A stretch of 64,000 nucleotides of DNA from Ignavibacteria bacterium (GTDB taxonomy: Bacteria > Bacteroidota > Ignavibacteria > Tepidaquicellales > OLB5): contig JAFLBX010000001.1 of the NCBI GenBank assembly GCA_017303675.1, positions 133,970-197,969 of the forward strand, in the 5' to 3' direction. Shown here one piece after another: positions 6,371 through 42,285 of the stretch; the stretch's first letter is position 1; each line of letters begins with the position of its first letter. The notes beneath the pieces were generated by a model. That model was given only the letters and a program-made list of their open reading frames with translations. It was not told where the DNA came from and ran no database searches. A program made the translations under genes and the position numbers.

Positions 6371-6433
6371 GCTATTACATTCTATTTACACAAAGAATTA
6401 ACAGTTTCAAATAATATAGCAGAATAATATTTT

Positions 6434-6775: not shown

Positions 6776-6786
6776 CCGTTCTTAAA

Positions 6787-7308
6787 ATGGATAAATTCAT
6801 AATTGAATCCGAACGAATCAGGCTGCGTGAGTTCAATTCCGGCGATGGGGAGTTTATTTACAAACTACTAAATACTCCGGGATGGCTTAAATATATAGGA
6901 AGCCGGTCCATAAACTGCCCGGAAGACGGAGTAAAATATATTGAAGAAAAATTAGCCAAAGGCTACAAAGAAAACGGTTTCGGCTTTTATCTCATGATAC
7001 TTAAATCCACCGGACAAAAAGCCGGGATGTGCGGGCTGGTAAAAAGAGACGGGCTTGATGATGTTGATATAGGCTTTGCTCTTCTGCCTGAATTTGAGAA
7101 TTTCGGCTATGCTGCCGAAGCTTCGCAAAGTGTTTTACAGTTCGCAAAAGATGTTCTGAAACTGCACAGGATAGCTGCAATTACTGTACCTTATAACTAT
7201 TCTTCTATTAAACTGCTTGAAAAGCTTGGGATGAAATTTGAAAAAACGATCAATATACCCAATGACACTGAAGATCTTCTGCTTTATACCAAAGAATTGT
7301 ATGACTGA
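6787..7308 (+). CDS. GNAT family N-acetyltransferase (RimJ/RimL-like)
   Basis: ERIRLREF N-terminus and FGYAAEA...A....N..S..L.EKLGM motif A/B region. Confidence 0.8.
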   Translation: MDKFIIESERIRLREFNSGDGEFIYKLLNTPGWLKYIGSRSINCPEDGVKYIEEKLAKGYKENGFGFYLMILKSTGQKAGMCGLVKRDGLDDVDIGFALLPEFENFGYAAEASQSVLQFAKDVLKLHRIAAITVPYNYSSIKLLEKLGMKFEKTINIPNDTEDLLLYTKELYD

Positions 7309-7311
7309 ACC

Positions 7312-7671
7312 ATGGAAAAAGTAATTATAAGCGATAAGCTTGAGCTTATTAATAAATACTGGGACCCGAAAATAGCCGGAGAGCTGAACGGACAGCATGT
7401 TAAGCTTGTTAAGTTCAAAGGAGAATTTGTCTGGCATAAACATGATAAAGAAGATGAGATGTTCTACGTCTTAAAAGGCAGCTTCGTTATGAAGCTTCGC
7501 AGCGGGGATATAACTATCAATGAAAATGAATTTATAATTATTCCCAAAGGGACAGAGCATTGCCCGATTGCTGATGAAGAAGTATCCGTTATGCTGTTTG
7601 AGCCGTCCGGGACCCTAAACACAGGCAACGTTATTAATGAATTTACTAAAAATGATCTTAAAACAATATAA
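7312..7671 (+). CDS. cupin domain protein
   Basis: GEFVWHKHDKEDEMFYVLKG...IIIPKGTEHCP gives the cupin_2 metal-binding motifs. Confidence 0.8.
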   Translation: MEKVIISDKLELINKYWDPKIAGELNGQHVKLVKFKGEFVWHKHDKEDEMFYVLKGSFVMKLRSGDITINENEFIIIPKGTEHCPIADEEVSVMLFEPSGTLNTGNVINEFTKNDLKTI

Positions 7672-7691
7672 TTGTTTACCTGAGGATTATT

Positions 7692-8069
7692 ATGCCGTAC
7701 TCAATAAAATTTGAAACATCTCCCCGGAGGATCGAGGTTGAATATTCAGGAACTGTAACCGATGACGAATTTAATCAGGCTATTAATGATTTTGTAAATT
7801 TTAATAAAGATAAAAATTGTCTGCTGGTGCTCACAGATCTAACTGAAATGAAAGTAACCCCTTCCATTTTAAATGTTTATAATTCAATCAATACATTTGA
7901 AAAAATGGGTATTGATAACAGGACATCTGAAGCCTTGATTCTTGAACAAAATAAATTTGTAGAAAGTAATATTAAATTTTACGAAAATGCCTGCCAAAAC
8001 CGTGGTTATAATGTCAGGATATTTTACAACAGGGAAGATGCGATTCATTGGTTAAAACTGCAGGAATGA
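7692..8069 (+). CDS. hypothetical protein
   Basis: 125-aa ORF, 20 nt after the cupin gene. No motif recognised. An SpoIIAA/STAS-like alpha/beta pattern is only a guess. Confidence 0.45.
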   Translation: MPYSIKFETSPRRIEVEYSGTVTDDEFNQAINDFVNFNKDKNCLLVLTDLTEMKVTPSILNVYNSINTFEKMGIDNRTSEALILEQNKFVESNIKFYENACQNRGYNVRIFYNREDAIHWLKLQE

Positions 8070-8102
8070 TTAACTAATTAATGTTCTTATACGATTTTAT
8101 TT

Positions 8103-8651
8103 TTACAGTTCAAATTTCACCGGCGTTTTTGTTTTATTCATCCAGTCACTCTTTAAGATCGAATATCCCGTACAATCATACCTGATACCATCAGCATCAG
8201 GCCAGGCCTGGCGGTAATGAGCTTCCTTTACAAATCCGCATTTTTCAAATACACTGCGCATCGCTGTATTATCTATCCTTGTAGTAGCTTCAAACCTTAG
8301 CTTATTGGGGTAGTTTGTAAACACAAAATTTGTAAGCCAGTTTAAGGCTTTTTTACCGATTCCTTTACAGCGAAATTCTTCTTTAATTTTTATATCAAAT
8401 AACGGGGTTTCATCATCTTCAGGTCCTGAACCCAGATCGAACAATCTTATTACACCTATCAATTCATCTTTGTTATTTAAGATAACAAATGTTCTGTGTC
8501 CTTCACCGGTAAAATACCCTTCGCTGAATTGTTTTTCCAGCTTTTCCCTGGGAATTTTGGGTGAGCTATGGAACGGCCAGTAACCGGAGGTAAGGAAATC
8601 CAATACTGAATCTTTTAGGTTAACATCAAATTCTTTTATTTCAATATCCAT
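8103..8651 (-). CDS. GNAT family N-acetyltransferase
   Basis: FRCKGIGKKALNWL...N..A..VFEKCGF motif A/B. Confidence 0.8.
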   Translation of the reverse strand: MDIEIKEFDVNLKDSVLDFLTSGYWPFHSSPKIPREKLEKQFSEGYFTGEGHRTFVILNNKDELIGVIRLFDLGSGPEDDETPLFDIKIKEEFRCKGIGKKALNWLTNFVFTNYPNKLRFEATTRIDNTAMRSVFEKCGFVKEAHYRQAWPDADGIRYDCTGYSILKSDWMNKTKTPVKFEL

Positions 8652-26839: not shown

Positions 26840-28438
26840 TTGATCAATAAAGTAAAAATACTGGGTTCATTGCTGCTTAAGCTTGAAACAAGGAGTAAAA
26901 CAGGTTCCGGCAGAAAAATGCTGTATCTTAATATTTCTTACTTTATCCCCGGGGTATTTTTACCGTGGCTGCTTCTCAAACAAAACGCTGATCCAACAGG
27001 TTTCCAGTTTTCTTTTATAACATTTCTGTTTTATTCCCTCATTATTGCTTTTACAATAATTACAGAGCTTGATAATCTTATAACAAGTAAAACTGAAACG
27101 GAAGTACTTGCAGCTATGCCGATTGATAACAGGCTTTTGGTTAATGCAAAAATGTATATGGTAACCAGGTACCTGCTGCTGTTGTCGCTTCCGCTGCTTG
27201 TACCCGGAAGTATATATTATTTTGCTATAATGCGTTCCTTTCCAAGAGCGCTGCTTTTCTACCTTTCAGCATTTATGCTGTGTTTTTTTATTACAAATAT
27301 CCTTATCCTTTTGTACAGCGCAGCAATCAGAACCTTCAGGTCAAAAAGTGTTGGTTCATACACAATGGTTTTCCAGGTTATCATGATACTTGTGCTGATA
27401 ATGGCTTACCAGTTTATATCATTCGGCATTACTGGCAAACCGGGCAGCAGCGTAAACGGCTATATTTCTGCGCTTGTTTCAAAAGGATATATAGATTACT
27501 TCCCGCCGGCATGGTTTGCCTTTTTAACTACAAGGAACCAGTACTTACTTGAACCTGCTTTGATTATAAAGCTGATCTCACCACTGCTTATCACTTCTTT
27601 AAGCTATTACAGCTTAAAGCTGTACCTGCTTGAAAATTATCCCCACATCCGTGATAAGTTCATGAATTCAAGATCGATAGGTGAAAGTGTAAAAACCAAA
27701 CAAAGGTTTTTTATTTTTTCTATGATAAGCGACCTTATCCAGAATGTTTATTTAAGAAATAATACTGAACGCTCTTCTTATGGCCTTATACAGGCATTAT
27801 TCAGTAAAGATAAAACCGTACGCCTTGCTGTAATGCCTATGATAATAATACCTTTAGGACTTGCAATCTTTGCCCTGATCACAGACCAGCTTCCGGCACC
27901 TTTTGATAAGAATTATTTTGAGCTTAAGCCTGTATTTCATATTTCGCTGCTGTTAAGCGTACTGGTGGTTCTAAATACAGCTATTATCGGGGTAAAGATA
28001 ACGAATTATCCCGGGGTATCATGGATTTATGATTCATACCCGCTTGTTTCAAAAAAGAATTTTAAAAACGGGTTCAGAAAGTTTTTTGTGGTTTACCTGT
28101 TAATTCCGACCTGCATAGGTCTTGGAATCATTTTCCTGTTTAAAATACCACTTCACCAGGCATTGTTGCATACTGTTTTTATTTTTGCTGCTGCGAATCT
28201 GTATAATACATTGTATAATCTCTTCAGCAAAGTATTACCGTTCACAAAAGAAAACACACTCATAAATTCCCTGCAAAGAATGACTGCGATAATATATCCT
28301 TTCATATACGGCTCAGTTATTGTATTGCTTCAGCTTTTTGTGTATAAAAATATGTTATCAGCCGTAATTGCTGTTCTGGCATTTATTACAATTACTTTCT
28401 GGCTGAATTATTTCGGCTTTGTCCGCAAAAAGGCGTAA
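26840..28438 (+). CDS. polytopic membrane protein of unknown function
   Basis: 532 aa with more than 10 hydrophobic helices. It lies 8 nt after mltG. The start is uncertain: TTG 26840 or ATG 26918. Confidence 0.55.
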   Translation: MINKVKILGSLLLKLETRSKTGSGRKMLYLNISYFIPGVFLPWLLLKQNADPTGFQFSFITFLFYSLIIAFTIITELDNLITSKTETEVLAAMPIDNRLLVNAKMYMVTRYLLLLSLPLLVPGSIYYFAIMRSFPRALLFYLSAFMLCFFITNILILLYSAAIRTFRSKSVGSYTMVFQVIMILVLIMAYQFISFGITGKPGSSVNGYISALVSKGYIDYFPPAWFAFLTTRNQYLLEPALIIKLISPLLITSLSYYSLKLYLLENYPHIRDKFMNSRSIGESVKTKQRFFIFSMISDLIQNVYLRNNTERSSYGLIQALFSKDKTVRLAVMPMIIIPLGLAIFALITDQLPAPFDKNYFELKPVFHISLLLSVLVVLNTAIIGVKITNYPGVSWIYDSYPLVSKKNFKNGFRKFFVVYLLIPTCIGLGIIFLFKIPLHQALLHTVFIFAAANLYNTLYNLFSKVLPFTKENTLINSLQRMTAIIYPFIYGSVIVLLQLFVYKNMLSAVIAVLAFITITFWLNYFGFVRKKA

Positions 28439-28587
28439 ATGTGTCTTTGTTATATTTTTATATTAATGTTGAAAATTGTTGTTTAAACTTCAAAATCAAT
28501 AAAAATAGATATTTTTCAGGTTAAACAGCTGCGCTTATTTCTGCCTCAAAAACCATTAACGTAAATTAATAATTTCTCATTTATTTA

Positions 28588-28616
28588 TTGACAAAACATG
28601 TTTTTTTAGTTATGTT
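28588..28616 (+). promoter_or_regulatory. candidate promoter of the six-gene cargo array
   Basis: TTGACA (28588-28593), a 17-nt spacer, then TATGTT (28611-28616). ATG 28630 lies only about 7 nt beyond the expected TSS and there is no SD. Confidence 0.35.
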
Positions 28617-28629
28617 TTAAAAAAAAGAT

Positions 28630-30375
28630 ATGAAAACCCTCAAAAACTATCTTATTCTCTTATTGATAGCAGCATCAATAATCCAAACAACATTTTTGTT
28701 TTCGCAATCACTTGCCCCGGCTCAAAGCATTTTTATGCAAGGCAATAACATCAATGCAGTTTTCAGAACTGACGGTCTTTTTAATTATGATAAAGTTACT
28801 TTTTCCAGCGGTTCTGCAGGGTTTATCTGGCCGGTTACTTCGCCGCAAAGATTAACAGCGGTGTTTACATCGGGAATATGGATTGGCGCAAAAGTGGGTC
28901 CCCAGCGCGAGCTGAGACTTGCCGCATCATTCTATAACACTCATTATTCACCGGGCAATATTCCGCAAACAGGTCAGGTTCCTCCATCATCTGTCTGCAG
29001 CGATCCCTCCTGGCGCGGGTATTATGTCCAGCTAACTGACCCTTCACTATTTTCAGGTGGTACACGATATAAAACTGCCGGCGGAAGACAATATACATTC
29101 AATTACGATTCTTGGGCAAACTGGCCGGTACAGAAAGGCGCGCCGTATGTTGAAGTAAACGGCATACCCGGTTATCAACCTGCATGGGATGGCGACCGTC
29201 CCGGAATAGGAAACGGTATGACAGCAAGACCCGAAGAACTCTCATTTTTTGTATATATGGATTATTACAACTGCACGAATAATCTACACTATTCAGAATT
29301 ATCTCTACCCGGCGGAACATTACCGATGGGTGTTGAAATACAACAAATTAATTTCATGTTCAACTGCTTCCCGCTTCGGGATATGTACTTTGTAAAATAC
29401 AGGGTCATAAACAAATCTTCATTTAATTGGGATAGTACATTTATTACAAATGTAAATGATCCTGATTTAGGAGAATCAATAGATGATGCATTGGGTTGCG
29501 ATACCGTAAGAAATTTAGGATTTTATTATAATTTCGATAATGATGATCCCGTTTACGGCATGAATCCACCTGCTGTAGGAATGAGATATATTCAAAGCTC
29601 TGTCAGATCTACCGGTAATCAAAATGATACTTTAAGGTTACCTTACGATACATTAATCGGATTCAAACAGAATGGAATGACGGCTTTCAATCGTCTTTCG
29701 GGTGGATCAAATGAATGTTTATCGGATCCCGATAATGCTCATTTTGCTTTTAATTTTATGAGAGGTTTAAATGGATGCGGAGAACCATATATAAATTTTG
29801 TTACCGGGGCACCAACCAGCTTCAAATATAGTGGTAATTCATGTCAGCGAACCGGTTGGTTCGATAGTCTTTGGGGTGATTGCAGAGGATTCATGAGTAC
29901 GGGTCCTGTTACTATGAACTCAGGCGATACACAAATTGTAGTACTAAACTACATGATTACTCGCGATGGCGGCAATAATTTCCAGAACGTTTGCGCGCTG
30001 CAATCGCTGTCAGACTCAGCATTAAAGTACTACTACAACGATTTCCGCACTTGCATGCCCATTGGAATTGAACCGATAAGCACTGAAATTCCGCAAAAAT
30101 TTGAGCTGTTTCAAAATTACCCAAACCCGTTTAACCCGGCTACAAAAATAAGGTTTCATATTCCCCTCTCGAGAGGGGTGGCCGGCGAAGCCGGACGGGG
30201 TGTGTTGCTTAAAATATTTGACATCCTCGGCAAAGAAATTGCAGTGCTGGTTAATGAAAACCTCAAACACGGCATTTATGAAATTGACTGGAATGCTGAA
30301 AATATACCAAGCGGCGTATATTTTTACTCTTTAATAACAAATGAATTCACCCAAACAAAAAAATGGTGGTGTTGA
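28630..30375 (+). CDS. T9SS-sorted Cys-rich secreted protein, family A paralog 1 (altered C-terminus)
   Basis: 581 aa with a signal peptide. Paralog of the genes at 30377, 32095 and 37990. It has the NYPNPFNP...GVYFYSL CTD but ends KKWWC instead of KKMVVVK. Confidence 0.85.
   Translation: MKTLKNYLILLLIAASIIQTTFLFSQSLAPAQSIFMQGNNINAVFRTDGLFNYDKVTFSSGSAGFIWPVTSPQRLTAVFTSGIWIGAKVGPQRELRLAASFYNTHYSPGNIPQTGQVPPSSVCSDPSWRGYYVQLTDPSLFSGGTRYKTAGGRQYTFNYDSWANWPVQKGAPYVEVNGIPGYQPAWDGDRPGIGNGMTARPEELSFFVYMDYYNCTNNLHYSELSLPGGTLPMGVEIQQINFMFNCFPLRDMYFVKYRVINKSSFNWDSTFITNVNDPDLGESIDDALGCDTVRNLGFYYNFDNDDPVYGMNPPAVGMRYIQSSVRSTGNQNDTLRLPYDTLIGFKQNGMTAFNRLSGGSNECLSDPDNAHFAFNFMRGLNGCGEPYINFVTGAPTSFKYSGNSCQRTGWFDSLWGDCRGFMSTGPVTMNSGDTQIVVLNYMITRDGGNNFQNVCALQSLSDSALKYYYNDFRTCMPIGIEPISTEIPQKFELFQNYPNPFNPATKIRFHIPLSRGVAGEAGRGVLLKIFDILGKEIAVLVNENLKHGIYEIDWNAENIPSGVYFYSLITNEFTQTKKWWC
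30163..30194 (+). repeat. in-frame GC-rich double hairpin element, copy 1
   Basis: Perfect 16-bp palindrome CCCCTCTCGAGAGGGG (30163-30178), then CCGGC-GAA-GCCGG (30182-30194). It encodes PLSRGVAGEAG inside the CTD. Confidence 0.6.
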
Positions 30376-30376
30376 A

Positions 30377-32098
30377 ATGAAAAAAATATTAATGTTAATA
30401 CTGATTTTATCATTTAATATATATGCTCAGTCGCTAGCTCCGGTACAAAACATTTTTATGCAGGGCAATAATATAAACGCAGTTTTCAGAACTGACGGTT
30501 ATTTTAATTTTGATATAGTTAATTTTCTAAATGGAAGTGCTGGTTTGGTTTGGCCAAGTACATCTCCTGAAAGATTGACTGGAATTTTCACTTCAGGGTT
30601 ATTCATTGGAGCAAAAGTGGGACCGCAACGGGAGCTCAGGGTTTCTGCATCATTTTATAATACTCATTATTCACCCGGCAATATACCCGTAATTGGTCAG
30701 GTCCCGCCATCATCAGTTTGTAGTGATCCATCATGGCGCGGATATTATGTCCAGTTGACTGACCCTTCGTTAATTTCAGGAGGTACAAGATATAAAACTG
30801 CAGGAGGCAGGCAGTATACGTTTAATTATGATTCATGGGCAGCATGGCCTGTTCAGAAAGGTGCGCCATATGTTGAAGTCAATGGTATTCCCGGCTACCA
30901 GCCAGACTGGAATGGCGATAGACCCGGAATTGGCAATGGAATGACTGCAAGACCCGAAGAATTACTGTTTATGGTTTATATGGATTATACCAATTGCAGA
31001 GATACTATACACAGTTCAGTATTGGGTTTACCCGGTGGTACACTGCCTCTTGGGGCTGAAATACAGCAATTGGTTTACAATTTTAATTGTTTACCTTTAA
31101 GAGACATGTATTTTATTAGTTATAGAATTATAAATAAAAGTAATAGTCATTGGGATAGTTTATATATTTCTAATGTAAATGATGCTGATATTGGAAATTC
31201 AAATGATGATGCTACAGGCTGCGATTCAACAAGAAATCTTTCATTTACTTATAATTTTAATCAGACTGATCCCGAATACGGAAACAACCCGCCTGTTATA
31301 GGAATCAGGATGCTTCAGACACCTATTGTATTTACTGGTATAAACAGCGATACATTAAAACTACCTTATGATACATTAATTGGTTATATAACGACTGGGA
31401 TGTCAGGTTTTAACGGGATAATAGGTGGAGGGAGTGGTTGTACTGCCTATTTGGGACACGCAATTAATGCCTATAATTTCATGCGGGGAAAAGATGGCTG
31501 CGGAAATCCAATAATTAACTGGGTAACAAATAAAACCACAACATTCAGATGGAGTGGTAATGCTTGTTACAGATATGGTTGGTTTGACAGTACCGGTCAG
31601 GAAAAAAGAATGATTAGCAGTATGGGATCAGCTTCTTTGAACTCCGGTGATACACAAATTGTAGTTATGAGTTATATGATAACGCGTGACGGCGGCAATA
31701 ACTTCCAGAATGTATGCGCGCTGCAATCGTTATCTGATTCAGCACTAAAGTATTACTACAACGATTTTCGCACATGTGTGCCTATTGGAATTGAACCAAT
31801 AAGCTCAGAAATTCCCCAAAAATTTGAGCTTTTACAGAATTATCCGAACCCGTTTAACCCGGCTACAAAAATAAGGTTTCATATTCCCCTCTCGAGAGGG
31901 GTGTCCGAAGGACGGGGTGTGTTACTTAAAATTTACGATGTACTCGGCAAGGAAATTGCCGTACTGGTAAATGAAAACCTCAAACCCGGCATTTATGAAA
32001 TTGACTGGAATGCTGAGAACCTTCCTAGCGGCGTATACTTTTACTCTTTATTAACAAATGAATTTACCCAAACAAAAAAAATGGTGGTGGTAAAATGA
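30377..32098 (+). CDS. T9SS-sorted Cys-rich secreted protein, family A paralog 2
   Basis: ATG 30377 lies 1 nt after the upstream stop. Signal peptide MKKILMLILILSFNIYAQS. Full CTD ending KKMVVVK. Confidence 0.85.
   Translation: MKKILMLILILSFNIYAQSLAPVQNIFMQGNNINAVFRTDGYFNFDIVNFLNGSAGLVWPSTSPERLTGIFTSGLFIGAKVGPQRELRVSASFYNTHYSPGNIPVIGQVPPSSVCSDPSWRGYYVQLTDPSLISGGTRYKTAGGRQYTFNYDSWAAWPVQKGAPYVEVNGIPGYQPDWNGDRPGIGNGMTARPEELLFMVYMDYTNCRDTIHSSVLGLPGGTLPLGAEIQQLVYNFNCLPLRDMYFISYRIINKSNSHWDSLYISNVNDADIGNSNDDATGCDSTRNLSFTYNFNQTDPEYGNNPPVIGIRMLQTPIVFTGINSDTLKLPYDTLIGYITTGMSGFNGIIGGGSGCTAYLGHAINAYNFMRGKDGCGNPIINWVTNKTTTFRWSGNACYRYGWFDSTGQEKRMISSMGSASLNSGDTQIVVMSYMITRDGGNNFQNVCALQSLSDSALKYYYNDFRTCVPIGIEPISSEIPQKFELLQNYPNPFNPATKIRFHIPLSRGVSEGRGVLLKIYDVLGKEIAVLVNENLKPGIYEIDWNAENLPSGVYFYSLLTNEFTQTKKMVVVK
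31886..31913 (+). repeat. in-frame GC-rich double hairpin element, copy 2
   Basis: CCCCTCTCGAGAGGGG (31886-31901), then GTCC-GAA-GGAC (31903-31913). Confidence 0.6.
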
Positions 32099-33816
32099 AA
32101 ACAATATATCTGTTAATACTTTTTTTATCATATAATGTTTATTCTCAAGCTCTCGCCCCGGCGCAAAGCATTTTTATGCAGGGCAATAATATCAATGCAG
32201 TATTCAGAACTGACGGGTATTTTAATTATGATAAAGTAACATTTACATATGGTGCTGCGGGCTTTATATGGCCTGTAAATTCTCCTTCAAGGATGACTGC
32301 TGTGTTTACTTCCGGACTCTTCATTGGAGCAAAAGTGGGTCCGCAACGTGAGCTAAGGCTCTCTGCTTCAATGTTTAATTCACATTTTTCGCCGGGTAAT
32401 ATCCCTGTTATTGGACAGGTTCCCGGAACATCAGTTTGCAGCGATCCCTCATGGCGGGGGTATTACGTACAGCTAAGTGACCCTGCATTAATTAATGGAG
32501 GGACCAGATATAAATCAGCTGGCGGCAGACAGTATACTTTTAATTACGATTCATGGGCAAGCTGGCCTGTGCAAAAAGGAGCTCCATATGTAGAAGTCAA
32601 TGGAATTCCCGGCTACCAGCCTGACTGGAACGGCGACAGACCCGGTATTGGTAATGGAATGACAGCAAGACCTGAAGAACTATTGTTTATGGTATTTATG
32701 GATTATACCAATTGCAGAGATACTATACACAGTTCGGAACTTAGTTTACCCGGAGGTACAATGCCTTTAGGAGTAGAAATACATCAATTGGTTTATAATT
32801 TTAACTGCTTCCCGCTTAGAGATATGTATTTCATTAAATACAAGTTCATCAACAAAAGCTCACAGGTTTGGGATAGTACATGGATATCAAATATAAATGA
32901 TTTCGATTTGGGTAATTCAAATGATGATGCAACCGGATGCGATTCAACAAGAAATCTTTCATTCACTTATAATTTTGATAACAATGATCCCGAATACGGA
33001 ACTAACCCCCCTGTTGCAGGTACAAGATTCCTTCAATCTCCTTTAAGATATACAGGAAACAATTCTGATACAGCTAAACTGCCTTATGATACTTTAACCG
33101 GATATAAAATGACGGGGATGACAGGTTTTTTCAGGTTTATTGGCGGAGGTAATGAATGTTTTGGTGATCCTGATGAGGCTTTTAGAGCATATAATTTTAT
33201 GCGTGGAAAAGATGGCTGCGGCAATACGTTAATTAATTGGGTTACTAATCAGCCAACAACATATTTGTGCTCAGGAAATGCGTGTTTAAGAACCGGTTGG
33301 TTTGATAGTGTATCCGGGGATAAAAGAGGAATTTCGAATATGGGTCCGGTTACAATGCAGCCGGGTGATACACAAATTGTGGTATTAAGCTATATGATAA
33401 CCCGCGATGGCGGCAACAATTTCCAGAATGTTTGTGCTCTGCAATCGTTATCAGATTCAGCATTAAAGTACTACTACAACGATTTCCGAACATGTGTGCC
33501 GATTGGTATTGAACCGATAAGCGCAGAAATTCCACAAAAATTTGAGTTGGTACAGAATTATCCAAATCCGTTTAATCCGGTTACAAAAATAAGGTTTCAT
33601 ATTCCCCTCTCGAGAGGTGTGTCCGCAGGACGGGGTGTATTACTTAAAATTTACGATGTCCTTGGCAAAGAAATAGCCGTACTGGTTAACGAAAACCTCA
33701 AACCCGGCATTTACGAAATCGACTGGAACGCCGAAAACATACCAAGCGGCGTTTATTTTTACTCTTTAATAACAAATGAATTTACCCAAACAAAAAAGAT
33801 GGTGGTGGTAAAATGA
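32095..33816 (+). CDS. T9SS-sorted Cys-rich secreted protein, family A paralog 3
   Basis: ATGA overlap with the upstream gene, a signal peptide and the CTD. Confidence 0.85.
   Translation: MKTIYLLILFLSYNVYSQALAPAQSIFMQGNNINAVFRTDGYFNYDKVTFTYGAAGFIWPVNSPSRMTAVFTSGLFIGAKVGPQRELRLSASMFNSHFSPGNIPVIGQVPGTSVCSDPSWRGYYVQLSDPALINGGTRYKSAGGRQYTFNYDSWASWPVQKGAPYVEVNGIPGYQPDWNGDRPGIGNGMTARPEELLFMVFMDYTNCRDTIHSSELSLPGGTMPLGVEIHQLVYNFNCFPLRDMYFIKYKFINKSSQVWDSTWISNINDFDLGNSNDDATGCDSTRNLSFTYNFDNNDPEYGTNPPVAGTRFLQSPLRYTGNNSDTAKLPYDTLTGYKMTGMTGFFRFIGGGNECFGDPDEAFRAYNFMRGKDGCGNTLINWVTNQPTTYLCSGNACLRTGWFDSVSGDKRGISNMGPVTMQPGDTQIVVLSYMITRDGGNNFQNVCALQSLSDSALKYYYNDFRTCVPIGIEPISAEIPQKFELVQNYPNPFNPVTKIRFHIPLSRGVSAGRGVLLKIYDVLGKEIAVLVNENLKPGIYEIDWNAENIPSGVYFYSLITNEFTQTKKMVVVK
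33604..33631 (+). repeat. in-frame GC-rich double hairpin element, copy 3 (first stem degenerate)
   Basis: CCCCTCTCGAGAGGTG (palindromic core CCTCTCGAGAGG), then GTCC-GCA-GGAC (33621-33631). Confidence 0.5.
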
Positions 33817-35897
33817 AAAAGTTAATTTTTTTGATACTGCTATGCCCTTCTTCAATTCTTCTTTCCCAGGGAGGGTGGGAACTGGTTTACTCAGGTAATA
33901 TTTCATCTTACCCGGTTTACAGGGATATTAATTTTATAAATGAAACTACAGGTTTCACATTAACTAATTTTGGCTTACTGAAAACTACGAACTCATCTCA
34001 TAGCTGGAACCAGGTTATAATTCCGGGATTAACAGGAGAGATCAGCTGTTATTATATTCTAAATGAAAATAATATATGGGTCTTAACAGATCATAAAGTT
34101 AACTATACTTCAAACGGAGGTATAAACTGGAATACCATTGATACAACAATTTCAGAGCCCATGTCAATCAGCTTCATAAATGCTCTAAGCGGCTGGGTTT
34201 GCGGAAACGGCGGAATGATCAAAAAAACTACTAATGGCGGCTTTAACTGGATAAGCTGCATATCAGGAACTAATGATAATCTCAGAACGATATCATTCCA
34301 AAATGCCAATAACGGGGTTTGCGCGGGCGACTGGGGAAAAATTCTTTCAACAATAAACGGCGGGTTAAACTGGATAGTTTTTACGGATCCTTACCAGGGT
34401 TTTTTTAAAAATTCGCTCTTCTACTCACAAAATTTTTATATTAGCGGCTCAGGAGTCAATATCTACAGAAGCTCTAATAACGGAAATAACTGGAGCCTTT
34501 CATATCTTAATGCTTCGGTTATTTCCAGCATCAGATTCAATTCACAGGGAAGAGGTTTTGCTTTTGGCTCACCAAATGATATTTTTTCATCAATTAATAA
34601 CGGGCTATCGTGGGAACGGATGAGTCCAAACGGGTTAAACCCTGCAGTTTATGGCTCATCTGTTACCCCAAACGGAACTATATGGATAGCTGCTGACAGC
34701 AGCATGATATTAAATTCAACTAATTCCGGCGCAGGCTGGAATGAGATCATCCGGAATTATATAACCGGGGAAAATTTAAATGCTGTTTATTTTACTGACC
34801 AATTCTCAGGTATAGCATGCGGGAATAAAGGAGTACTTATTAAATCTACTAATGGCGGAGTGAACTGGAAACATACCGGTTTAAATGAAACAGGAAATCT
34901 AAGGTCAGTAAAATTTACTGATAATAACACGGGTTTTATCTGCGGCGGTAACGGTTCAACTGAGGGAGTAATTTACCGAACAACGGATTTTGGGACATCC
35001 TGGGTAAATCAATTCAGGGATTCTTCCCACTTGAACAGTATTTTTTTTATCAATTCTCAAACAGGCTGGGCAGCCGGTGTAAAAGGTATATTTTTAAAAA
35101 CCACAAATAGCGGTATAATCTGGGTAAGAGAGCGTTTTCAAGATACTACTATAAATAATATTTCTTTCTTAAATAATAATACAGGTTTTATTTGCAGCAG
35201 GAAAATATATAAAACCACTAACTCAGGAACAAACTGGTACCAGGTTTTGAATAATCCATCATATCAAATACAGGTTACAGGCAATACCATTTATGCGCTA
35301 AGCAAATCCTTAAACGTGAATTATATAAATAAAAGCACTGATTTTGGTGAATCCTGGAGCAGTACTTCGCAGGGAAGCGGTTCAAATTTCAGCTTTTACT
35401 TTGTTAACTCTGAGACAGGATGGTTTAGTAACAGTTCAGCAGTCAGAAGGACTACAAATGGCGGAGCAAACTGGAGCATACAGCCCGGCACAGGGATTTC
35501 AGTATTAACTATCTTTTTTACAGATCCTTTGCATGGTTGGGTTGCCGGTAATTCCGGTTCAATCGCAAGAACCATAACAGGGGGAATAGGTATAACACAA
35601 ATATCATCTGATGTACCAATGGATTACCAATTGCAGCAAAACTATCCAAATCCTTTCAATCCCGCTACAAAAATAAGATTCAATATTCCTGCATTTGCAG
35701 AGATAACCCGGCGGATCGTCTCCCTGAAAATTTACGATATACTTGGCAAAGAAATTGCCGTACTTGTAAACGAAAATCTCAAACCCGGCATTTATGAAGT
35801 TGAGTGGAATGTACAAAATATTCCAAGTGGTGTGTATTTTTACTCTTTAATAACCAATGAATTTACCCAAACAAAAAAGATGGTAGTGGTAAAATGA
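33813..35897 (+). CDS. T9SS-sorted BNR/Ycf48-like beta-propeller repeat protein, family B paralog 1
   Basis: 694 aa with a signal peptide. It has many (K/R)(T/S)TNGGxNW repeats. The last ~58 aa of the CTD are nearly identical to the family A tail. ATGA overlaps occur at both ends. Confidence 0.85.
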   Translation: MKKLIFLILLCPSSILLSQGGWELVYSGNISSYPVYRDINFINETTGFTLTNFGLLKTTNSSHSWNQVIIPGLTGEISCYYILNENNIWVLTDHKVNYTSNGGINWNTIDTTISEPMSISFINALSGWVCGNGGMIKKTTNGGFNWISCISGTNDNLRTISFQNANNGVCAGDWGKILSTINGGLNWIVFTDPYQGFFKNSLFYSQNFYISGSGVNIYRSSNNGNNWSLSYLNASVISSIRFNSQGRGFAFGSPNDIFSSINNGLSWERMSPNGLNPAVYGSSVTPNGTIWIAADSSMILNSTNSGAGWNEIIRNYITGENLNAVYFTDQFSGIACGNKGVLIKSTNGGVNWKHTGLNETGNLRSVKFTDNNTGFICGGNGSTEGVIYRTTDFGTSWVNQFRDSSHLNSIFFINSQTGWAAGVKGIFLKTTNSGIIWVRERFQDTTINNISFLNNNTGFICSRKIYKTTNSGTNWYQVLNNPSYQIQVTGNTIYALSKSLNVNYINKSTDFGESWSSTSQGSGSNFSFYFVNSETGWFSNSSAVRRTTNGGANWSIQPGTGISVLTIFFTDPLHGWVAGNSGSIARTITGGIGITQISSDVPMDYQLQQNYPNPFNPATKIRFNIPAFAEITRRIVSLKIYDILGKEIAVLVNENLKPGIYEVEWNVQNIPSGVYFYSLITNEFTQTKKMVVVK

Positions 35898-37993
35898 AAA
35901 AAATAATACTGTTTATTTTTATAATTCTTATCTTCAAACTGGATTCATTTGGCGGCTGGGAAGTAATTTATCCCGGTTTGAATATTTACGGATCATATTA
36001 TAAGGATATAGCGTTTTTCAATGATCAGACCGGATGGCTGTTAACACAATCAGATGTAAGAAAAACCACAAACGGCGCTCAGACCTGGATAAAGTATGAC
36101 CTTTCAAGGGGCTATTACACATCAATGACCTGCGCCCAGTTTCTCAATAAAGATACAGGCTGGGTATTAGTCGGCAAATTCCTGAACTTTACAACAAATA
36201 GCGGAGCAAACTGGACGATAATGGATTCTTCTACTTCTAATATCAAAAGTATGCATTTTCTTGATATCAATAACGGCTGGGCATGTGGCAGCAGCGGTTC
36301 AGTTTATAAAACCACAAATGGAGGAAAAAACTGGTTAAGTATAAATACGGGCACATCAAACAATTTAAATGCTGTTTCATTTGCAGATAATAACTTTGGA
36401 GTTTGCGGGGGTGATTGGGGCACTATTATATGGACAACAAATGGTGGATTGAATTGGAATAATTTTACAGATAGTTATATTAATTTCTTTACAAATGTAA
36501 AATGTTTCAATAACCAAACCTGCATCGTTACAGGTACAGGAAGCATTTTATACCGGACAACCAATCGCGGAGCATCATGGCAGCCTCATTTTACAAATTT
36601 ATTAATACAGAATACTATTGAGCTTGATCCAGCAAACAACGGTTATATTTTCGGTTCTCCGAATTCTTTTATAAGAACGGCAAATTCAGGAAGTACGTGG
36701 GAAACGATTACTTCCGTGAGCTTGTTTTCCCGGTTATATTCAGCTTCAATCACACCATCAAATACATTCTGGTGTGCAGCAGATAGCGGTATTATATTCA
36801 GATCATCCACTAACGGTAACAATTGGGATATAGCTTACAGGGAATACATTACCCAGGAAAATTTAAAATCAGTATACTTTGTAAATCAGTCAACTGGTTT
36901 AGCAGCTGGTACACACGGAATAATGCTTCGAACAACCAATGGCGGAATCAACTGGAACAGTCAGTTCCTTGGTACAGATAAAACATTTAATTCAATTCAG
37001 TTCGTTAATTCAGAAACAGGATATGCAGCAGGGGGTGAAAGCTATAGCTTTGGTATAGTTTATAAAACTACAAATTCCGGCATCAGCTGGCAGCAGGTTT
37101 ACCGTGATTCACTGCAGTTGGTTTCAGTACATTTTATAAATCCATCAACAGGATGGAGCGCAGCCAACAGCAGGGCAATAATTAAAACCACGGATGCAGG
37201 AAATAACTGGAGTAAATCCATTATAACAACAACTCAACCCCTAAATAATATTTATGATATTTTTTTTATTAATGAAAACACCGGGTTTATAGGAAGTACC
37301 GGAATGTATAAAACAACTGACGGTGGTATAAACTGGTACAGGGTACTTGTTTATATTACACAATCCATCCAGTTTATTGGGAATAGCGGTTTTGCAATTA
37401 CTAATGCAGCAGGAAATTTCATGAAATCAACAAACACCGGCGAAAACTGGGTGTCATATCCAACCGGAGGAAGTTACAGAGGAGACGTATTTTTCATTAA
37501 TACTGAAACAGGCTGGGTTAATACACCGAATATTATCCGTAAGACTACTAATGGAGGTATTAACTGGGCTGTACAAAACACTGACTTAAACTCAATTTCT
37601 GCCAACGCATTATTTTTTATTAATGAAAATATTGGCTGGGCTGCAGGCAATTATGGCGGTATAATGCGAACAACTAACGGCGGCATAGGAATTTCAACTA
37701 TTTCAACGGAAATTCCCAGGCAGTTCAATTTGTACCAGAATTATCCTAACCCATTTAATCCGGTAACAAAGATAAGATTCAGTATTCCCTCTACTCTGGA
37801 GAACCGGCAATCAGTCTCGCTGAAAATATACGACATTCTCGGCAAAAAAATCGTCGTGCTGGTAAACGAAAATCTGCTACCCGGAACTTATGAAACTGAA
37901 TGGAATGCCTCAAATTATTCAAGCGGTATATATTTTTACAGTCTAATAACTGATAACTTCACCCAAACCAGAAAGATGGTATTAATAAAATGA
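35894..37993 (+). CDS. T9SS-sorted BNR/Ycf48-like beta-propeller repeat protein, family B paralog 2
   Basis: 699 aa with the same repeat architecture (KTTNGGKNW, RTTNGGINW...). The CTD ends RKMVLIK. Confidence 0.85.
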   Translation: MKKIILFIFIILIFKLDSFGGWEVIYPGLNIYGSYYKDIAFFNDQTGWLLTQSDVRKTTNGAQTWIKYDLSRGYYTSMTCAQFLNKDTGWVLVGKFLNFTTNSGANWTIMDSSTSNIKSMHFLDINNGWACGSSGSVYKTTNGGKNWLSINTGTSNNLNAVSFADNNFGVCGGDWGTIIWTTNGGLNWNNFTDSYINFFTNVKCFNNQTCIVTGTGSILYRTTNRGASWQPHFTNLLIQNTIELDPANNGYIFGSPNSFIRTANSGSTWETITSVSLFSRLYSASITPSNTFWCAADSGIIFRSSTNGNNWDIAYREYITQENLKSVYFVNQSTGLAAGTHGIMLRTTNGGINWNSQFLGTDKTFNSIQFVNSETGYAAGGESYSFGIVYKTTNSGISWQQVYRDSLQLVSVHFINPSTGWSAANSRAIIKTTDAGNNWSKSIITTTQPLNNIYDIFFINENTGFIGSTGMYKTTDGGINWYRVLVYITQSIQFIGNSGFAITNAAGNFMKSTNTGENWVSYPTGGSYRGDVFFINTETGWVNTPNIIRKTTNGGINWAVQNTDLNSISANALFFINENIGWAAGNYGGIMRTTNGGIGISTISTEIPRQFNLYQNYPNPFNPVTKIRFSIPSTLENRQSVSLKIYDILGKKIVVLVNENLLPGTYETEWNASNYSSGIYFYSLITDNFTQTRKMVLIK

Positions 37994-39711
37994 AAACTTT
38001 AATATTATTTATTGCTCTTAGCTATTCTGTTTATGGACAGTCACTCGCTCCGGCGCAAAGCATATTTATGCAGGGCAATAATATTAACTCTGTTTTCAGA
38101 ACAGATGGCTATTTTAACTACGATAAAGTAACTTTCCTGAATGGAAACGGAGGTTTTTTATGGCCTGTAACTTCACCTATACGAATGAGTGCTATTTTTA
38201 CAACGGGTATCTGGATCGGCACAAAAGCGGGTCCGCAGCGTGAACTAAGGCTTGCGGCATCTACATATAATTCCCATTATTCACCCGGTAATATTCCCGT
38301 AATTGGTCAAGTACCGCCGTCATCAGTTTGCACAGATCCTTCCTGGCGGGGATATTATGTACATTTAAATGATCCTGCTCTTTTTAACGGCGGCACGAGA
38401 TATAAGATGGCAGGAGGGAGACAATATACCTTCAATTATGATTCCTGGGCAAGCTGGCCCGTGCAGAAAGGTGCGCCATATGTTGAAGTAAACGGTATAC
38501 CCGGTTACCAGCCTGCATGGAATGGGGACAGACCTGGTATCGGTAACGGTATGTCAGCAAGACCTGAAGAAATATTATTTATGGTATTTATGGATTATAC
38601 TAACTGCACTGATTCCATTCACACAAGCGAAATGAGTTTACCCGGGGGTTCAAAACCATTAGGAGTAGAAATTCAACAAATAGTTTTCAATTTCAATTGT
38701 TTCCCATTGCGTGATATGTATTTTGTAAAATACAGAATAATAAATAAAAGTTCATTGGTTTGGGATAGTACCTATATAGGTATTTGCAGTGATACCGATC
38801 TGGGCGATGCCGGTGATGATGTAACCGGATGTGATACAACAAGAAATATGGGATTTGTATATAATTATGATAATAATGACCCGATTTACGGAACAAATCC
38901 TCCAGCAGTTGGTATTAGGCTGCTGCAAAGTCCTTTGCGTTTTACAGGTTCAAACTCTGATACTGTAAAACTGCCTTATGATACTCTAATAGGTTATAAA
39001 TCAATTGGTATGAGTTCGCATATGTCATTTAAAAATAACGGGCCTTGCTATTCAGATCCATCTGATGCTGTAACCGCATACAATCTTTTATCCGGTTTTA
39101 ATGGATGTGGTGAACAATTGATAAATTGGGTAACAGGTCAGCCAACAAAATTCCTATACAGCGGAAATGCCTGTCAGCGCACAGGCTGGTACGATAGTAA
39201 TTCCCAGGATGTAAAAAATTTTATCGGCTCAGGCCCGTATATTATGAATTCCGGTGATACACAAATTGTAATGACAAGTTTTATGATCACACATGAAGGA
39301 GGCAATAATCTGCAGAATGTTTGTGCATTACAGACTCTTTCCGATACTGCTCTGTCAAACTATTACAGGGATTTTTCTAATTGTATTCCCATAGGTATCG
39401 AACCAATAAGCAGTGAAATCCCTCAAAAATTTGAGCTGGCACAGAATTATCCAAATCCGTTTAATCCTGTTACAAAATTTCGATTCTCCATTCCCCTCTC
39501 AAGAGGTGTGGACGGCATAGCCGGACGGGGTGTGTTGCTTAAAATTTACGATGTACTTGGCAAGGAAATTTCCGTTCTGGTAAACGAGCAGCTCAAGCCC
39601 GGCATTTATGAAATTGACTGGAACGCTGAGAACATACCAAGCGGCGTATATTTTTATTCACTCATAACAAATGAATTTACCCAAACAAAAAAAATGGTGG
39701 TGGTAAAATAG
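37990..39711 (+). CDS. T9SS-sorted Cys-rich secreted protein, family A paralog 4
   Basis: 573 aa and the most diverged A copy. The CTD ends KKMVVVK-TAG. This is the last gene of the array. Confidence 0.85.
   Translation: MKTLILFIALSYSVYGQSLAPAQSIFMQGNNINSVFRTDGYFNYDKVTFLNGNGGFLWPVTSPIRMSAIFTTGIWIGTKAGPQRELRLAASTYNSHYSPGNIPVIGQVPPSSVCTDPSWRGYYVHLNDPALFNGGTRYKMAGGRQYTFNYDSWASWPVQKGAPYVEVNGIPGYQPAWNGDRPGIGNGMSARPEEILFMVFMDYTNCTDSIHTSEMSLPGGSKPLGVEIQQIVFNFNCFPLRDMYFVKYRIINKSSLVWDSTYIGICSDTDLGDAGDDVTGCDTTRNMGFVYNYDNNDPIYGTNPPAVGIRLLQSPLRFTGSNSDTVKLPYDTLIGYKSIGMSSHMSFKNNGPCYSDPSDAVTAYNLLSGFNGCGEQLINWVTGQPTKFLYSGNACQRTGWYDSNSQDVKNFIGSGPYIMNSGDTQIVMTSFMITHEGGNNLQNVCALQTLSDTALSNYYRDFSNCIPIGIEPISSEIPQKFELAQNYPNPFNPVTKFRFSIPLSRGVDGIAGRGVLLKIYDVLGKEISVLVNEQLKPGIYEIDWNAENIPSGVYFYSLITNEFTQTKKMVVVK
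39493..39523 (+). repeat. in-frame GC-rich double hairpin element, copy 4 (first stem degenerate)
   Basis: CCCCTCTCAAGAGGTG, then CGGC-ATA-GCCG (39513-39523). Confidence 0.45.
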
Positions 39712-39740
39712 ATTTTACAATTTGATTCATCAACCAAAAT

Positions 39741-39772
39741 GGTGTCAGGTATATACCTGACACCACTTTTTT
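39741..39772 (+). terminator. strong intrinsic terminator ending the six-gene array
   Basis: Perfect 24-nt palindrome GGTGTCAGGTAT/ATACCTGACACC, followed two nt later by T6. Confidence 0.75.
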
Positions 39773-39828
39773 AATGTAAACAGGTCATATTAATTTTTAC
39801 ATTTAAATTGATGTAACTCCATTATATT

Positions 39829-42285
39829 TTGGGCTTTAAAATTAAAAAATTGATGAATTCAGCCCAAAATCCGGTTTCAGTTTCAAAAAATAATTATATT
39901 GGAATATTCCTCGTAGCGCTTTCAACCTTAATGTATGAAATACTGCTTACGCGTATTTTCAGCGTTACTATGGGTTATCATTTTGCGTTTATGGCAGTAT
40001 CTCTGGCAATGTTCGGTATGACTGTTGGAGCTATAATTGTTTATATATTCCCTCATAAATTCCCACAGGAAAAAATAAATATTATATTAACAAAACAGGC
40101 GTTTTATTTCAGTATAGCAACACTTTTAAGCTTTTTAATTCATCTGTTCATTCCCTTCATTCACGGTATGTCCTTATTGGGAATGGCTGTAACTGCGTTT
40201 ACTTATGCAGAAATTTCCGTGCCATTCGTATTCAGCGGAATATGTATCTCGCTGCTTTTAACACGATTCCCTGCATCAGTTAACAAGCTTTATGCCGCTG
40301 ATCTGATAGGTGCTTCATTGGGCTGTATTCTTGTGGTAGTGGTGCTTAATGTTTCAGGCGGACCCACAGGTGTATTTATTACTGCGCTGTTTTCTGCTGC
40401 AGCAGCATATACCTTCAGCCGAAACTCTGAAATAAAAACATCGATCGGTAAATCCATTGCAGTATTTTCTCTTGTAATACTTGTATTTTCGGTATTTCAT
40501 ACAGTTCTTGTTCAAAAACATGAACCGCTTCTCAGATTATTCTGGGTTCGCGGTGAATGGGCTGAAAAGCCTTTATATGAAAAATGGAACTCGTTCAGCC
40601 GTGTAAGCATTGATGGCGACTCAACCAAATATGAAACGCCGTTTGGCTGGGGTTTAAGCAATAAGTATGACCGCTCAAGGAAAATACGTCAGCTTATGCT
40701 GAATATCGATGCGCATTCAACAACAGTGCTTTCGCACTTTAACGGAGATACATCAGAGCTTTCGCATTTAAAATATGATGTATCGAACCTTGCACAATAT
40801 ATGCGTCCTAACGGCGATATAATGATCATCGGCAGCGGCGCAGGGCGCGATGTGCTTTCATCACTGGCATTTGGGCAAAAAAATATCCTAGGCATTGAAA
40901 TAAATAAGGATATGATAAGCGCTATCAATAATGATTTTGGCAATTTTACCGGGCACCTTGATAAATATCCGCATGTTGAGTTTGTCGGTGATGAAGCCCG
41001 AAGTTATATTCAGAGAATGGATAGCTCCCGGAAATTCGATATCATACAGGTTTCAGTAATTGATAACTGGTCTGCTGCAGCATCAGGTGCATTTGTACTC
41101 ACGGAAAACGCATTATACACCACAGAAACCTGGAAGCTGCTCTTTAGCAGGCTGAAACCTGATGGAATATTAACCGTTACCCGTTTTTACCGTGCAAAGC
41201 CAATTGAACATTACAGGCTAATGAACATAACTGCTGATGCTCTTTTGGAATCCGGTATCAAAGATATCCGCAGCCATGTTATGCTGATAAAATGCCAGCA
41301 GCAGGAACGACTCGAGGACAGAAGCGGCACTGGTACACTTCTAATCAGCAAAACACCGTTCAGCAGCAAAGATCTGAACATGGTTGATAGTCTTTGCAGA
41401 ACATTTGAATTTGAAGATATCATTTCTCCCCGAAATGCGGCAGACTCGGTTTTTGTTAAGCTCACAAATGAAAACCTAAGGGGTAACCTTAATAATAACT
41501 TTCCGCTAGATATCACTTCACCAAGCGATGATAAGCCTTTTTTCTTCCATTATATGAATTTTACAGACCTGCCAAATACTCAATTATGGAATATGTGGGA
41601 TATGGGCTTTAATGCAAAAGCTATATTCATCCTGCTGACTCTTGCCGGTACAATGGGATTTTTATCTCTTTTGTGTATAATTGTTCCGCTTAAGCTTACC
41701 GCCAAAAAGATTCAGCTTAAAGGCACTTCATCATTCTTTATCTATTTTACCGGTCTTGGTCTAGGCTTTATGCTTATAGAAATTTCACAGATACAGAGGC
41801 TTAATATATTCCTTGGTCACCCGACATTTAGCCTTGCGGCGGCACTGTTTACAATGCTGCTTTCAAGCGGAATAGGCAGCTTTTTAAGCGGGGCTGATAA
41901 ACCCGGTGCTGCAGGAAAAAGTAAATTGAGGTTTATTATATTGATGATCATACTGGTATTATTTGGTCTATTTACACCTTATATAGTTGAAACTTTCAGG
42001 GAGTATTCAACTGAAATCAGGGTTTTGGTTTCTGTACTTATACTTTTTCCAATGGGATTATTCCTCGGAATGGCATTCCCGATCGGTATGAAACTTGCCG
42101 GTGAAAAGGCTCCCGGAATTACACCGTGGTTATGGGGTATTAATGGTGTAATGAGTGTTCTTGCAACTGTACTTTCAATAATAATCGCAATGAATTACGG
42201 AATTTCATCTTCTTATTGGGCCGGAGCAATATGTTATTTAGCAGCGTTTGCTGCGCTGCTTTCTTTTACAAAAAAGAGAGCTTAA
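39829..42285 (+). CDS. spermidine synthase-like (class I MTase fold) protein flanked by two polytopic membrane modules
   Basis: The N-terminal module carries YEILLTRIFSVTMGYHFAFMAVSLAMFGMTVGA. The central part has IIGSGAGRDVLSSLAFGQKNILGIEIN, a Rossmann motif. The C-terminal module repeats the membrane motif (LIEISQIQRLNIFLGHPTFSLAAALFTMLLSSGIGS). The start is TTG 39829 or ATG 39853. Confidence 0.7.
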   Translation: MGFKIKKLMNSAQNPVSVSKNNYIGIFLVALSTLMYEILLTRIFSVTMGYHFAFMAVSLAMFGMTVGAIIVYIFPHKFPQEKINIILTKQAFYFSIATLLSFLIHLFIPFIHGMSLLGMAVTAFTYAEISVPFVFSGICISLLLTRFPASVNKLYAADLIGASLGCILVVVVLNVSGGPTGVFITALFSAAAAYTFSRNSEIKTSIGKSIAVFSLVILVFSVFHTVLVQKHEPLLRLFWVRGEWAEKPLYEKWNSFSRVSIDGDSTKYETPFGWGLSNKYDRSRKIRQLMLNIDAHSTTVLSHFNGDTSELSHLKYDVSNLAQYMRPNGDIMIIGSGAGRDVLSSLAFGQKNILGIEINKDMISAINNDFGNFTGHLDKYPHVEFVGDEARSYIQRMDSSRKFDIIQVSVIDNWSAAASGAFVLTENALYTTETWKLLFSRLKPDGILTVTRFYRAKPIEHYRLMNITADALLESGIKDIRSHVMLIKCQQQERLEDRSGTGTLLISKTPFSSKDLNMVDSLCRTFEFEDIISPRNAADSVFVKLTNENLRGNLNNNFPLDITSPSDDKPFFFHYMNFTDLPNTQLWNMWDMGFNAKAIFILLTLAGTMGFLSLLCIIVPLKLTAKKIQLKGTSSFFIYFTGLGLGFMLIEISQIQRLNIFLGHPTFSLAAALFTMLLSSGIGSFLSGADKPGAAGKSKLRFIILMIILVLFGLFTPYIVETFREYSTEIRVLVSVLILFPMGLFLGMAFPIGMKLAGEKAPGITPWLWGINGVMSVLATVLSIIIAMNYGISSSYWAGAICYLAAFAALLSFTKKRA

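Follow-up and report, generated by a model that had tools for sequence, protein, structure and literature searches.

The 64,000-nucleotide stretch analysed here (hereafter the window; positions 133,970 to 197,969 of contig JAFLBX010000001.1 in assembly GCA_017303675.1, from an Ignavibacteria bacterium) carries a G/C-rich unit of 36-42 nt, present as one in-frame copy in the sorting domain of each of four paralogous genes, A1 to A4, whose products bear a type IX secretion system (T9SS) type A sorting domain. Judged by its sequence architecture, this A-type element is probably a dispersed repeat of the class II intrastrand-triplex type, lodged in a permissive loop of the protein and potentially able to form a triplex. 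The case rests on related sequences, where covariation of one of its stems and conservation at the nucleotide level are clear.

The unit is ordered as CCCCTCTC / GAGAGGGG / a loop holding a small hairpin / GGGGTGTG. It opens with the pyrimidine arm CCCCTC(TC) and its complement, the purine arm (GA)GAGGGG; there follow a second loop (loop 2), which starts with TG and contains a small hairpin with a 3-4 nt loop, and the third arm GGGGTG(TG). This last arm repeats GAGAGGGG, the purine arm, in mirror image, T replacing A, and encodes ..GRGV... In A1, the pyrimidine arm CCCCTCTC (30163-30170; all window features described here are on the forward strand) provides the codons P-L-S of ..IPLSRGV.. and pairs with the purine arm GAGAGGGG (30171-30178), in practice through 6 bp and a TCGA loop. 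Loop 2 of A1 (30179-30196) consists of TG, the hairpin CCGGC-GAA-GCCGG (30182-30194) and AC, and is followed by the third arm GGGGTGTG (30197-30204), which lies in the codons of ..RGV.. and would contribute six G·G:C and two T·A:T triads. The A2 element is complete in 36 nt, or 12 codons (31886-31921; CCCCTCTC GAGAGGGG TG-GTCC-GAA-GGAC GGGGTGTG, third arm at 31914-31921). The A3 element (33604-33639) is slightly decayed, with the purine arm GAGAGGTG, the hairpin GTCC-GCA-GGAC and the third arm GGGGTGTA (33632-33639). In A4 (39493-39534) the arms are decayed (CCCCTCTCAAGAGGTG), the hairpin reads CGGC-ATA-GCCG and the third arm is GGGGTGTG (39527-39534). The arms of A1 and A2 yield 8 allowed triads, of which 6 are realistic given the TCGA loop, and those of A3 and A4 have 1-2 mismatches. 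A first-pass annotation, made from the letters of the window, had described a 16-bp palindrome that is perfect in the first two copies and partly degenerate in the others. Indeed, CCCCTCTCGAGAGGGG (16 nt) is perfect at 30163-30178 and 31886-31901 and carries 1 mismatch at 33604 and 2 at 39493. The four stem-loop versions that it listed were likewise correct in sequence and position. Its term "double hairpin" holds in that both hairpins are present but is incomplete, as the third arm was missed and the small hairpin lies in the second loop of a three-arm unit.

In all four A paralogs the insert sits in the β1-β2 loop of the PF18962 sorting domain, where the first-pass annotation had placed it, about 190 nt upstream of the stop codon. 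The host domain was delimited in A2 (31841-32095, residues 489-571 of the 573-aa product read from the ATG at 30377), where it scores 35.8 bits against a PF18962 gathering cutoff of 27 and forms a seven-strand β-sandwich at the C-terminus. The AlphaFold model of this domain has a mean pLDDT of 90.5 and seven strands; the insert forms the surface hairpin loop (model residues 33-41) between the strands 25-32 and 42-50, and the confidence of the model is lowest at the insert.

Taken by itself, the window gives a weak signal, because the copies are paralogs, their RNA folds equal dinucleotide shuffles (z -0.13, -0.36, -0.02 and -1.12) and about 1.3 perfect palindromes with a half-length of at least 8 are expected per window. 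Folding the four loci was a check proposed in the first-pass annotation; since the single-sequence z-scores are non-significant, thermodynamics alone cannot support the finding. A search for CCCCTCTCGAGAGGGG with up to 3 mismatches found no further match in the window, where 0.03 is expected. The run common to A1 and A2, previously put at about 55 nt, measures 57 nt (30124-30180).

To follow the element among relatives, the A4 sorting domain served as a protein query, which retrieved hundreds of Ignavibacteria domains; DNA was then taken for 158 loci from genomes and metagenomes, and 282 unique sorting domains were extracted. An exact search for the A1 protein among public assemblies gave no record; in the sorting domain, the best relative from a genome shares 63% identity. 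The loop is canonical in 177/282 domains and extended in about 100, and across Ignavibacteria the β1-β2 loop holds a range of G/R/P-rich inserts; the first-pass annotation had correctly mentioned such inserts, as G/R/L-rich, in other members of the group. DNA of the PLSRGV type is near-invariant at synonymous sites despite widely differing flanks (ATT CCC CTC TCG AGA GGG GTG, hairpin, CGG GGT GTG). In 15 domains, codon identity among pairs with the same amino acid reaches 0.95 in the nine arm codons vs 0.52 upstream and 0.50 downstream, and GC content is 0.72 in the arm codons vs 0.32-0.41 in the flanks. The loop-2 hairpin covaries (stems GTCC/GGAC, GGCC/GGCC, GGGC/GCCC, CCGGC/GCCGG, GTCTGCC/GGCGGAC and CAGCG/CGCTG among others), with 5/6 pairs altered on both sides, a level reached by 0/500 shuffles; the first hairpin shows no covariation, being invariant throughout. 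Over all copies, including those outside sorting domains, the 20 unique loop-2 hairpins comprise at least 12 different stems with a mean z of -2.7, and chimeras between loop-2 instances fold at -3.2 vs -6.8 kcal/mol. The residues encoded by loop 2 vary freely (SEG, AEG, GEA, SAG, AGEAG, DGIAG) and pairing stays, which implies a constraint on the nucleic acid. These data show that conservation acts at the DNA level and not at the peptide level; both checks proposed earlier, stem covariation and reduced synonymous variation, thus bear out the idea of selection on the nucleic acid, and conservation of the protein only is not seen. Fold energies and G·U counts of the sense and antisense strands, compared over 101 extended loops, revealed no clear asymmetry (sense more stable in 66 vs 34, p = 0.067), so that such folds do not separate an RNA-level from a DNA-level constraint.

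The third arm is what relates the element to intrastrand triplex motifs, defined by Holder et al. (2015; PMC4666352) as a C-rich stem, its G-rich complement and then a G/T stem able to align in antiparallel fashion with the purine stem, forming G·G:C, A·A:T and T·A:T triads (class II). An E. coli example is CCCTCTCCC-TGTG-GGAGAGGG-CC-GGGGTGAGGG (PMC4666352). The same block order, C-rich, G-rich and G/T arm, is common to the triplex motifs described (Holder, PMC4666352; Hoyne/Maher; TM-ECO/BoxC/"PIT") and to the A-type element: in A1 and A2, a pyrimidine stem is followed by a complementary purine stem and an antiparallel third stem with allowed triads only. Many arms of such motifs, those of the A-type element included, are asymmetric, so that mirror and direct repeats can be told apart; among the 33 sorting-domain loops whose hairpin has an asymmetric homopurine arm, 28 show a mirror arm downstream, and a direct copy alone occurs in no case. 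Two other structures were considered and rejected, namely a G-quadruplex, as there are only two G4 runs, and a Watson-Crick pairing of the third arm with the C arm, as at most 4 bp are possible and the relation is mirror, not inverted. Further triplex motifs occur in sorting-domain loops, including TCTCCCCC-TTAAA-GGGGGAGA-CAA-AGAGGGGG, CCCCCC-TTGA-GGGGGG-TAT-GGGGGG and TCCCTCTCC-TTCG-GGAGAGGGA-TTG-AGGGTGAGG.

In this class the stems are 6-15 nt long, and the ITxF search (PMC4666352) requires both loops to be of 1-6 nt. The arms of the A-type element, at 6-8 nt, fall within the stem range; loop 1 has 4 nt, and loop 2 has 12 or 18 nt in the window copies, beyond the limit. In relatives, loop 2 measures 4-6 nt (loci L157, L160 and L161) or 36 nt (L119). 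Since ITxF permits loops of 1-6 nt, A-type elements would escape it. Like the TM-ECO/BoxC motifs (consensus CCCTCNCCC N3-6 GGGNGAGGG N3 GGGNGAGGG; intergenic only, in Proteobacteria; PMC4666352), the element is G/C-rich in a genome where such composition is unusual, occurs in inverted pairs (here at L119), and is multi-copy with highly conserved stems and variable loops; across the related sequences it is also over-represented, its stems being more conserved than its loops. However, it is not a member of TM-ECO/BoxC, from which it differs in sequence, in its shorter (6-8 vs 9) and asymmetric arms, in a loop 2 of 12-36 nt with a covarying hairpin, in its lineage, Ignavibacteria and their phages, and in its in-frame position at recurrent coding sites, whereas TM-ECO is "always intergenic".

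The element is not tied to sorting domains. Among the genome and metagenome loci, the core occurs once outside such a domain, in an orthologous intergenic region of L119 (6417-6478) and L091, as ATTCCCCTCTCGAGAGGGGTG-36-nt hairpin-GGGGTGTG, adjoining a second triplex motif in inverted orientation. That this copy is a dead sorting domain was rejected, as homology ends with the element. Viral contigs were scanned exactly for the element and then more loosely. The exact scan gave four loci, all with complete elements in-frame in other genes: a sense copy in L159, where it lies close to the C-terminus of a Mu-type transposase, antisense copies in the terminase large subunit (L160 and L161; a further one is in L165) and an antisense copy in L162, in the tail that ends an AAA ATPase at its C-terminus. 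The looser scan returned 16 complete elements, of which 7 are intergenic, 5 antisense and 4 sense, together with further hairpin variants. The element therefore exists independently of sorting domains, between genes and in-frame elsewhere, in either orientation.

Insertion boundaries can be read from two paralogous sorting domains of the same genome in L001, one filled (6063) and one empty (2110). Their flanks match up to ATT and from TTA ACA on; the empty site has the four canonical loop codons AAAGATTCAAGA (12 nt), and the filled site has the 36-nt element in their place. The boundaries against the canonical paralog are thus sharp, four loop codons having been replaced, and neither a target-site duplication nor terminal inverted repeats are found in this pair. 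The triplet ATT stands immediately 5' of most independent copies (30160-30162 and equivalent positions in the window; L119, L159, L162, L165, L186, L193 and L241) and also at the junction of the empty L001 site, and may be a target preference rather than a part of the element. With the same element intergenic, in-frame in unrelated genes and sharply bounded, the phrase "in-frame miniature palindromic element" of the first-pass annotation came close to the truth.

Three side observations concern this wider set. Downstream of the intergenic L119 element, a long stretch (6123-8225) lacks convincing open reading frames (ORFs) and holds ~240-nt repeats and a repeated hairpin CCACTAGC-TTTA-GCTAGTGG. 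Complete three-arm elements with loop-2 hairpins are present on the viral contigs L186, L228, L230 and L241, whose GC content is 0.44-0.66, and the family may therefore reach beyond AT-rich Ignavibacteria. In L015 (1183-1797, minus strand), a 204-aa membrane protein owes its last ~10 residues and stop codon (..RPHPNPPRRGGS, stop) to a triplex motif overlapping its 3' end.

From the sequences compared, the sorting-domain β1-β2 loop is a recurrent landing site for several repeat families in this bacterial group. G-rich triplex motifs reach 0.93 per kb in sorting-domain loops, vs 0.004 in other coding DNA and 0.11 in intergenic DNA; for GC-rich perfect hairpins, the corresponding densities are 1.04, 0.05 and 0.59 per kb. 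Of the 101 extended loops, 29 hold triplex motifs (28 sense, 1 antisense), 21 other GC-rich hairpins, many of them GTAG-tagged like repetitive extragenic palindromes (REPs), and 13 7-nt tandem repeats; among the remaining 38, many can be recognised as decayed copies, as is the case for A3, A4 and B1 in the window. Since close relatives, sorting domains with 83-85% flank identity, bear unrelated inserts, the inserts have been replaced at this site. The 7-nt tandem class is not a hairpin: it has 3-4 copies of, for example, GTCAAAC, of which 21 nt make 7 residues, read ..SNVKxQTSNVK.., and is found in the sorting-domain loops of L009, L074, L106, L113 and L115 as well as in the terminase of L164.

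The B-type family is represented in the window by two further genes, B1 and B2. The B1 loop (35697-35723) holds GCAGAGATAACCCGGCGGATCGTCTCC, a decayed copy of an insert that is intact in relatives as GTAGAGACGACC-CGGCG-GGTCGTCTC, a GTAG-tagged palindrome whose stem several relatives hold through G·T pairs. The B2 loop (37790-37819; STLENRQSVS) is also extended and probably contains a further decayed insert of the B1 type. The first-pass annotation had credited the other sorting domains with only a few residues at this point; B1 and B2 in fact carry loops of 8-9 residues.

A second site of this kind is found in phages and prophages of Ignavibacteria, whose terminase large subunit (PF17289) has one hypervariable loop between HLFYELFER and EW.SFNFSSYDNP. 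An empty form is known (L163), along with more than 25 length variants (P0121-P0240; L160 4628-4655, L161 2400-2427, L163, L164 and L165), some of them with triplex motifs in antisense orientation, others with the heptamer repeat GTCAAAC, with a "PSTSLRMT" type or with tandems in multiple copies.

Other known repeats resemble the A-type element in part. Rickettsia palindromic elements (RPE; Ogata et al. 2000), as far as they are described where cited in PMC3733652, are likewise short palindromic repeats carried in-frame by still-functional genes, tolerated in surface loops and also extragenic. By the same account, RPE are ~100-150 bp long, restricted to Rickettsia, without triplex architecture and scattered over many proteins, whereas the A-type element is shorter and concentrated in one loop of one domain family. 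REP/REPIN sequences, with which RAYT transposases are associated, are characterised by a GTAG or CGTC tag at one end of an imperfect palindrome of 20-40 bp (Di Nocera et al. 2013, PMC3733652). Hairpin repeats of this size, mostly intergenic with some in ORFs and with G·T pairs in the stem, are a point of likeness, but the A-type element lacks the GTAG or CGTC tag and possesses a mirror arm as its third; the B-type relatives are tagged (GTAGAGACG...). A RAYT gene was not seen, although no search aimed at one was made. MITEs (miniature transposable elements with inverted repeats) share the small size, non-coding nature and dispersed distribution suggestive of mobility; they differ in their terminal inverted repeats and target duplications, absent at the L001 pair, and in being typically far longer. 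Rfam covariance models, run over positions 28000-42000 and over the intergenic copy in L119, gave no match at the element, and a literature search found no report linking triplex motifs or in-frame palindromic repeats to T9SS sorting domains. Triplex motifs (PMC4666352) and in-frame palindromic repeats (RPE, intragenic REPs; PMC3733652) are already known; the loop-2 hairpin variant, the in-frame residence and the recurrent landing-pad loops are new.

We propose that the A-type element is a structure-prone DNA repeat that would propagate or maintain itself, being spread or homogenised by a process acting on the nucleic acid. Such a process could be insertion or replacement at sites that mostly follow ATT, conversion between paralogous genes, or template switching in quasi-palindromes, which would also mimic compensatory change. 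Copies would persist only where the protein tolerates ~6-8 extra residues. The T9SS sorting domain is cleaved off after export, which would make its β1-β2 loop tolerant. For the host, the likely consequence would be that DNA becomes locally unstable, with stalling, breaks, gene conversion or tandem duplication, and not a designed effect on expression.

Several points weigh against this proposal. Neither a mobilising enzyme nor terminal inverted repeats or a target duplication came to light, so "mobile" here is meant from distribution only. Within the window the element is confined to four paralogs, its dispersal being seen in the loci of relatives and in viral contigs. For the E. coli motif, triplex formation went undetected in vivo (PMC4666352). 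All sorting-domain copies occupy the same codon position and could go back to a single old insertion; the codon identity of 0.95 would then imply selection in place and hence some function. Orientation is biased per site, with 28 sense vs 1 antisense in sorting domains and antisense copies in terminase, which a purely neutral model does not predict. A bolder version, possible but rather unlikely, takes up this bias: tiny structured repeat families of Ignavibacteria and their phages (triplex motifs, GTAG palindromes, 7-nt tandem repeats) would repeatedly insert into, and displace one another at, the same few codons of permissive loops in a structure-targeted, in-frame "cassette exchange". The sites would be the T9SS β1-β2 loop and the terminase loop, with orientation fixed per site and the 5' neighbour usually ATT. 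If true, it would point to dedicated machinery recognising single strands or hairpins, or to real triplex-dependent biology, instead of passive tolerance.

The structure could also be adaptive at the DNA level, stalling replication or provoking breaks within shared sorting-domain codons and so favouring, where secreted-protein genes stand in arrays, their tandem duplication and homogenisation and the shuffling of domains. We regard such a recombination or gene-conversion hotspot, which the first-pass annotation had also raised, as unlikely. The expected correlation exists: a paralog domain with at least 80% nucleotide identity lies in the same locus for 13/35 insert-bearing domains vs 6/109 others in genome loci, 25/59 vs 14/64 in metagenome loci and 5/7 vs 0/8 in the window. 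The 57-nt identical A1/A2 tract is centred on the element, and triplex motifs of E. coli are associated with local genomic variability (PMC4666352), although mostly as small local changes and not large rearrangements. However, this evidence goes no further than correlation, the loci were retrieved with an insert-bearing query, paralog counts are non-independent, and young duplicates may merely be where inserts are not yet lost.

A cis-acting structure in the mRNA that would stabilise it near the 3' end, serve as a processing site for an RNase or make ribosomes pause ahead of the coupled restart, as first suggested for this DNA, is a decidedly poor candidate. Stem 2 does covary, including one G·U pair (L095), sorting-domain copies are nearly all sense, and sense folds are slightly more stable than antisense ones (66 vs 34 loops, p = 0.067). 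But fold energies are no better than those of shuffles, Rfam gives no match, the element is antisense in terminase and ATPase genes and also intergenic, and its position, ~190 nt before the stop codon, is not that of a cistron end; the arms are decayed in 2/4 window copies, and an RNA hairpin model gives the mirror third arm no role. Selection of a G/R-rich loop for its part in recognising or processing the sorting domain, with the palindrome as a by-product, would account for an insert that is always in-frame in the same loop and for the recurring peptide motif PLSRGV..GRGV. This very improbable reading is already contradicted by the almost frozen synonymous sites of the arms (0.95 vs 0.50), by loop-2 residues that vary freely with base pairing kept, by the 177/282 sorting domains without insert and by the same DNA being read in other frames or on the other strand in other proteins. 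Finally, that a chance palindrome was inherited by four paralogs, with no wider meaning, would fit their paralogy, the expectation of about one such palindrome per window and the non-significant fold z-scores, but is hardly conceivable and already refuted, since the identical element, its hairpin covarying and its third arm conserved, turns up in numerous contigs and contexts that are unrelated.

With a GC content of 0.32-0.41 the window is AT-rich, and many of the secreted proteins that it encodes terminate in a T9SS type A sorting domain; in Pfam, A2 and B1 match PF18962 above threshold. Six of its sorting-domain genes form a tandem array, in the order A1 (28630-30375), A2 (30341-32098), A3 (32095-33816), B1 (33813-35897), B2 (35894-37993) and A4 (37990-39711). 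The C-terminus of A1 reads ..TQTKKWWC before the stop where the family has ..TQTKKMVV(V/L)K (30350-30377), its poly-A run being one A shorter than in the other copies, a -1 frameshift that changes the last sorting-domain strand and abolishes the ATGA stop/start overlap. This frameshift could be a sequencing error, a pseudogene or slippage, and the ATG at 30377 is probably where A2 really starts. At the end of the array, 29 nt past the A4 stop codon, lies a perfect 26-bp palindrome, TGGTGTCAGGTATATACCTGACACCA (39740-39765), with a near-identical counterpart after a homologous gene in L085 (~4259).

Triplex-prone repeats have so far been described as strictly intergenic and without assigned function; here, a family resides inside coding sequence, its DNA structure kept against synonymous drift and its extra covarying hairpin evading standard searches. 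Several repeat families use one loop of the phylum's most abundant secreted-protein tag as a common landing pad, and a loop of the phage terminase is used likewise. For annotation, this means that G/R/P-rich "loops" in sorting domains should be regarded with caution, as they are repeat-derived. Furthermore, the filled, empty and replaced sites of close paralogs offer a natural system for studying how such repeats move and whether non-B DNA drives the duplication of secreted-protein gene arrays.

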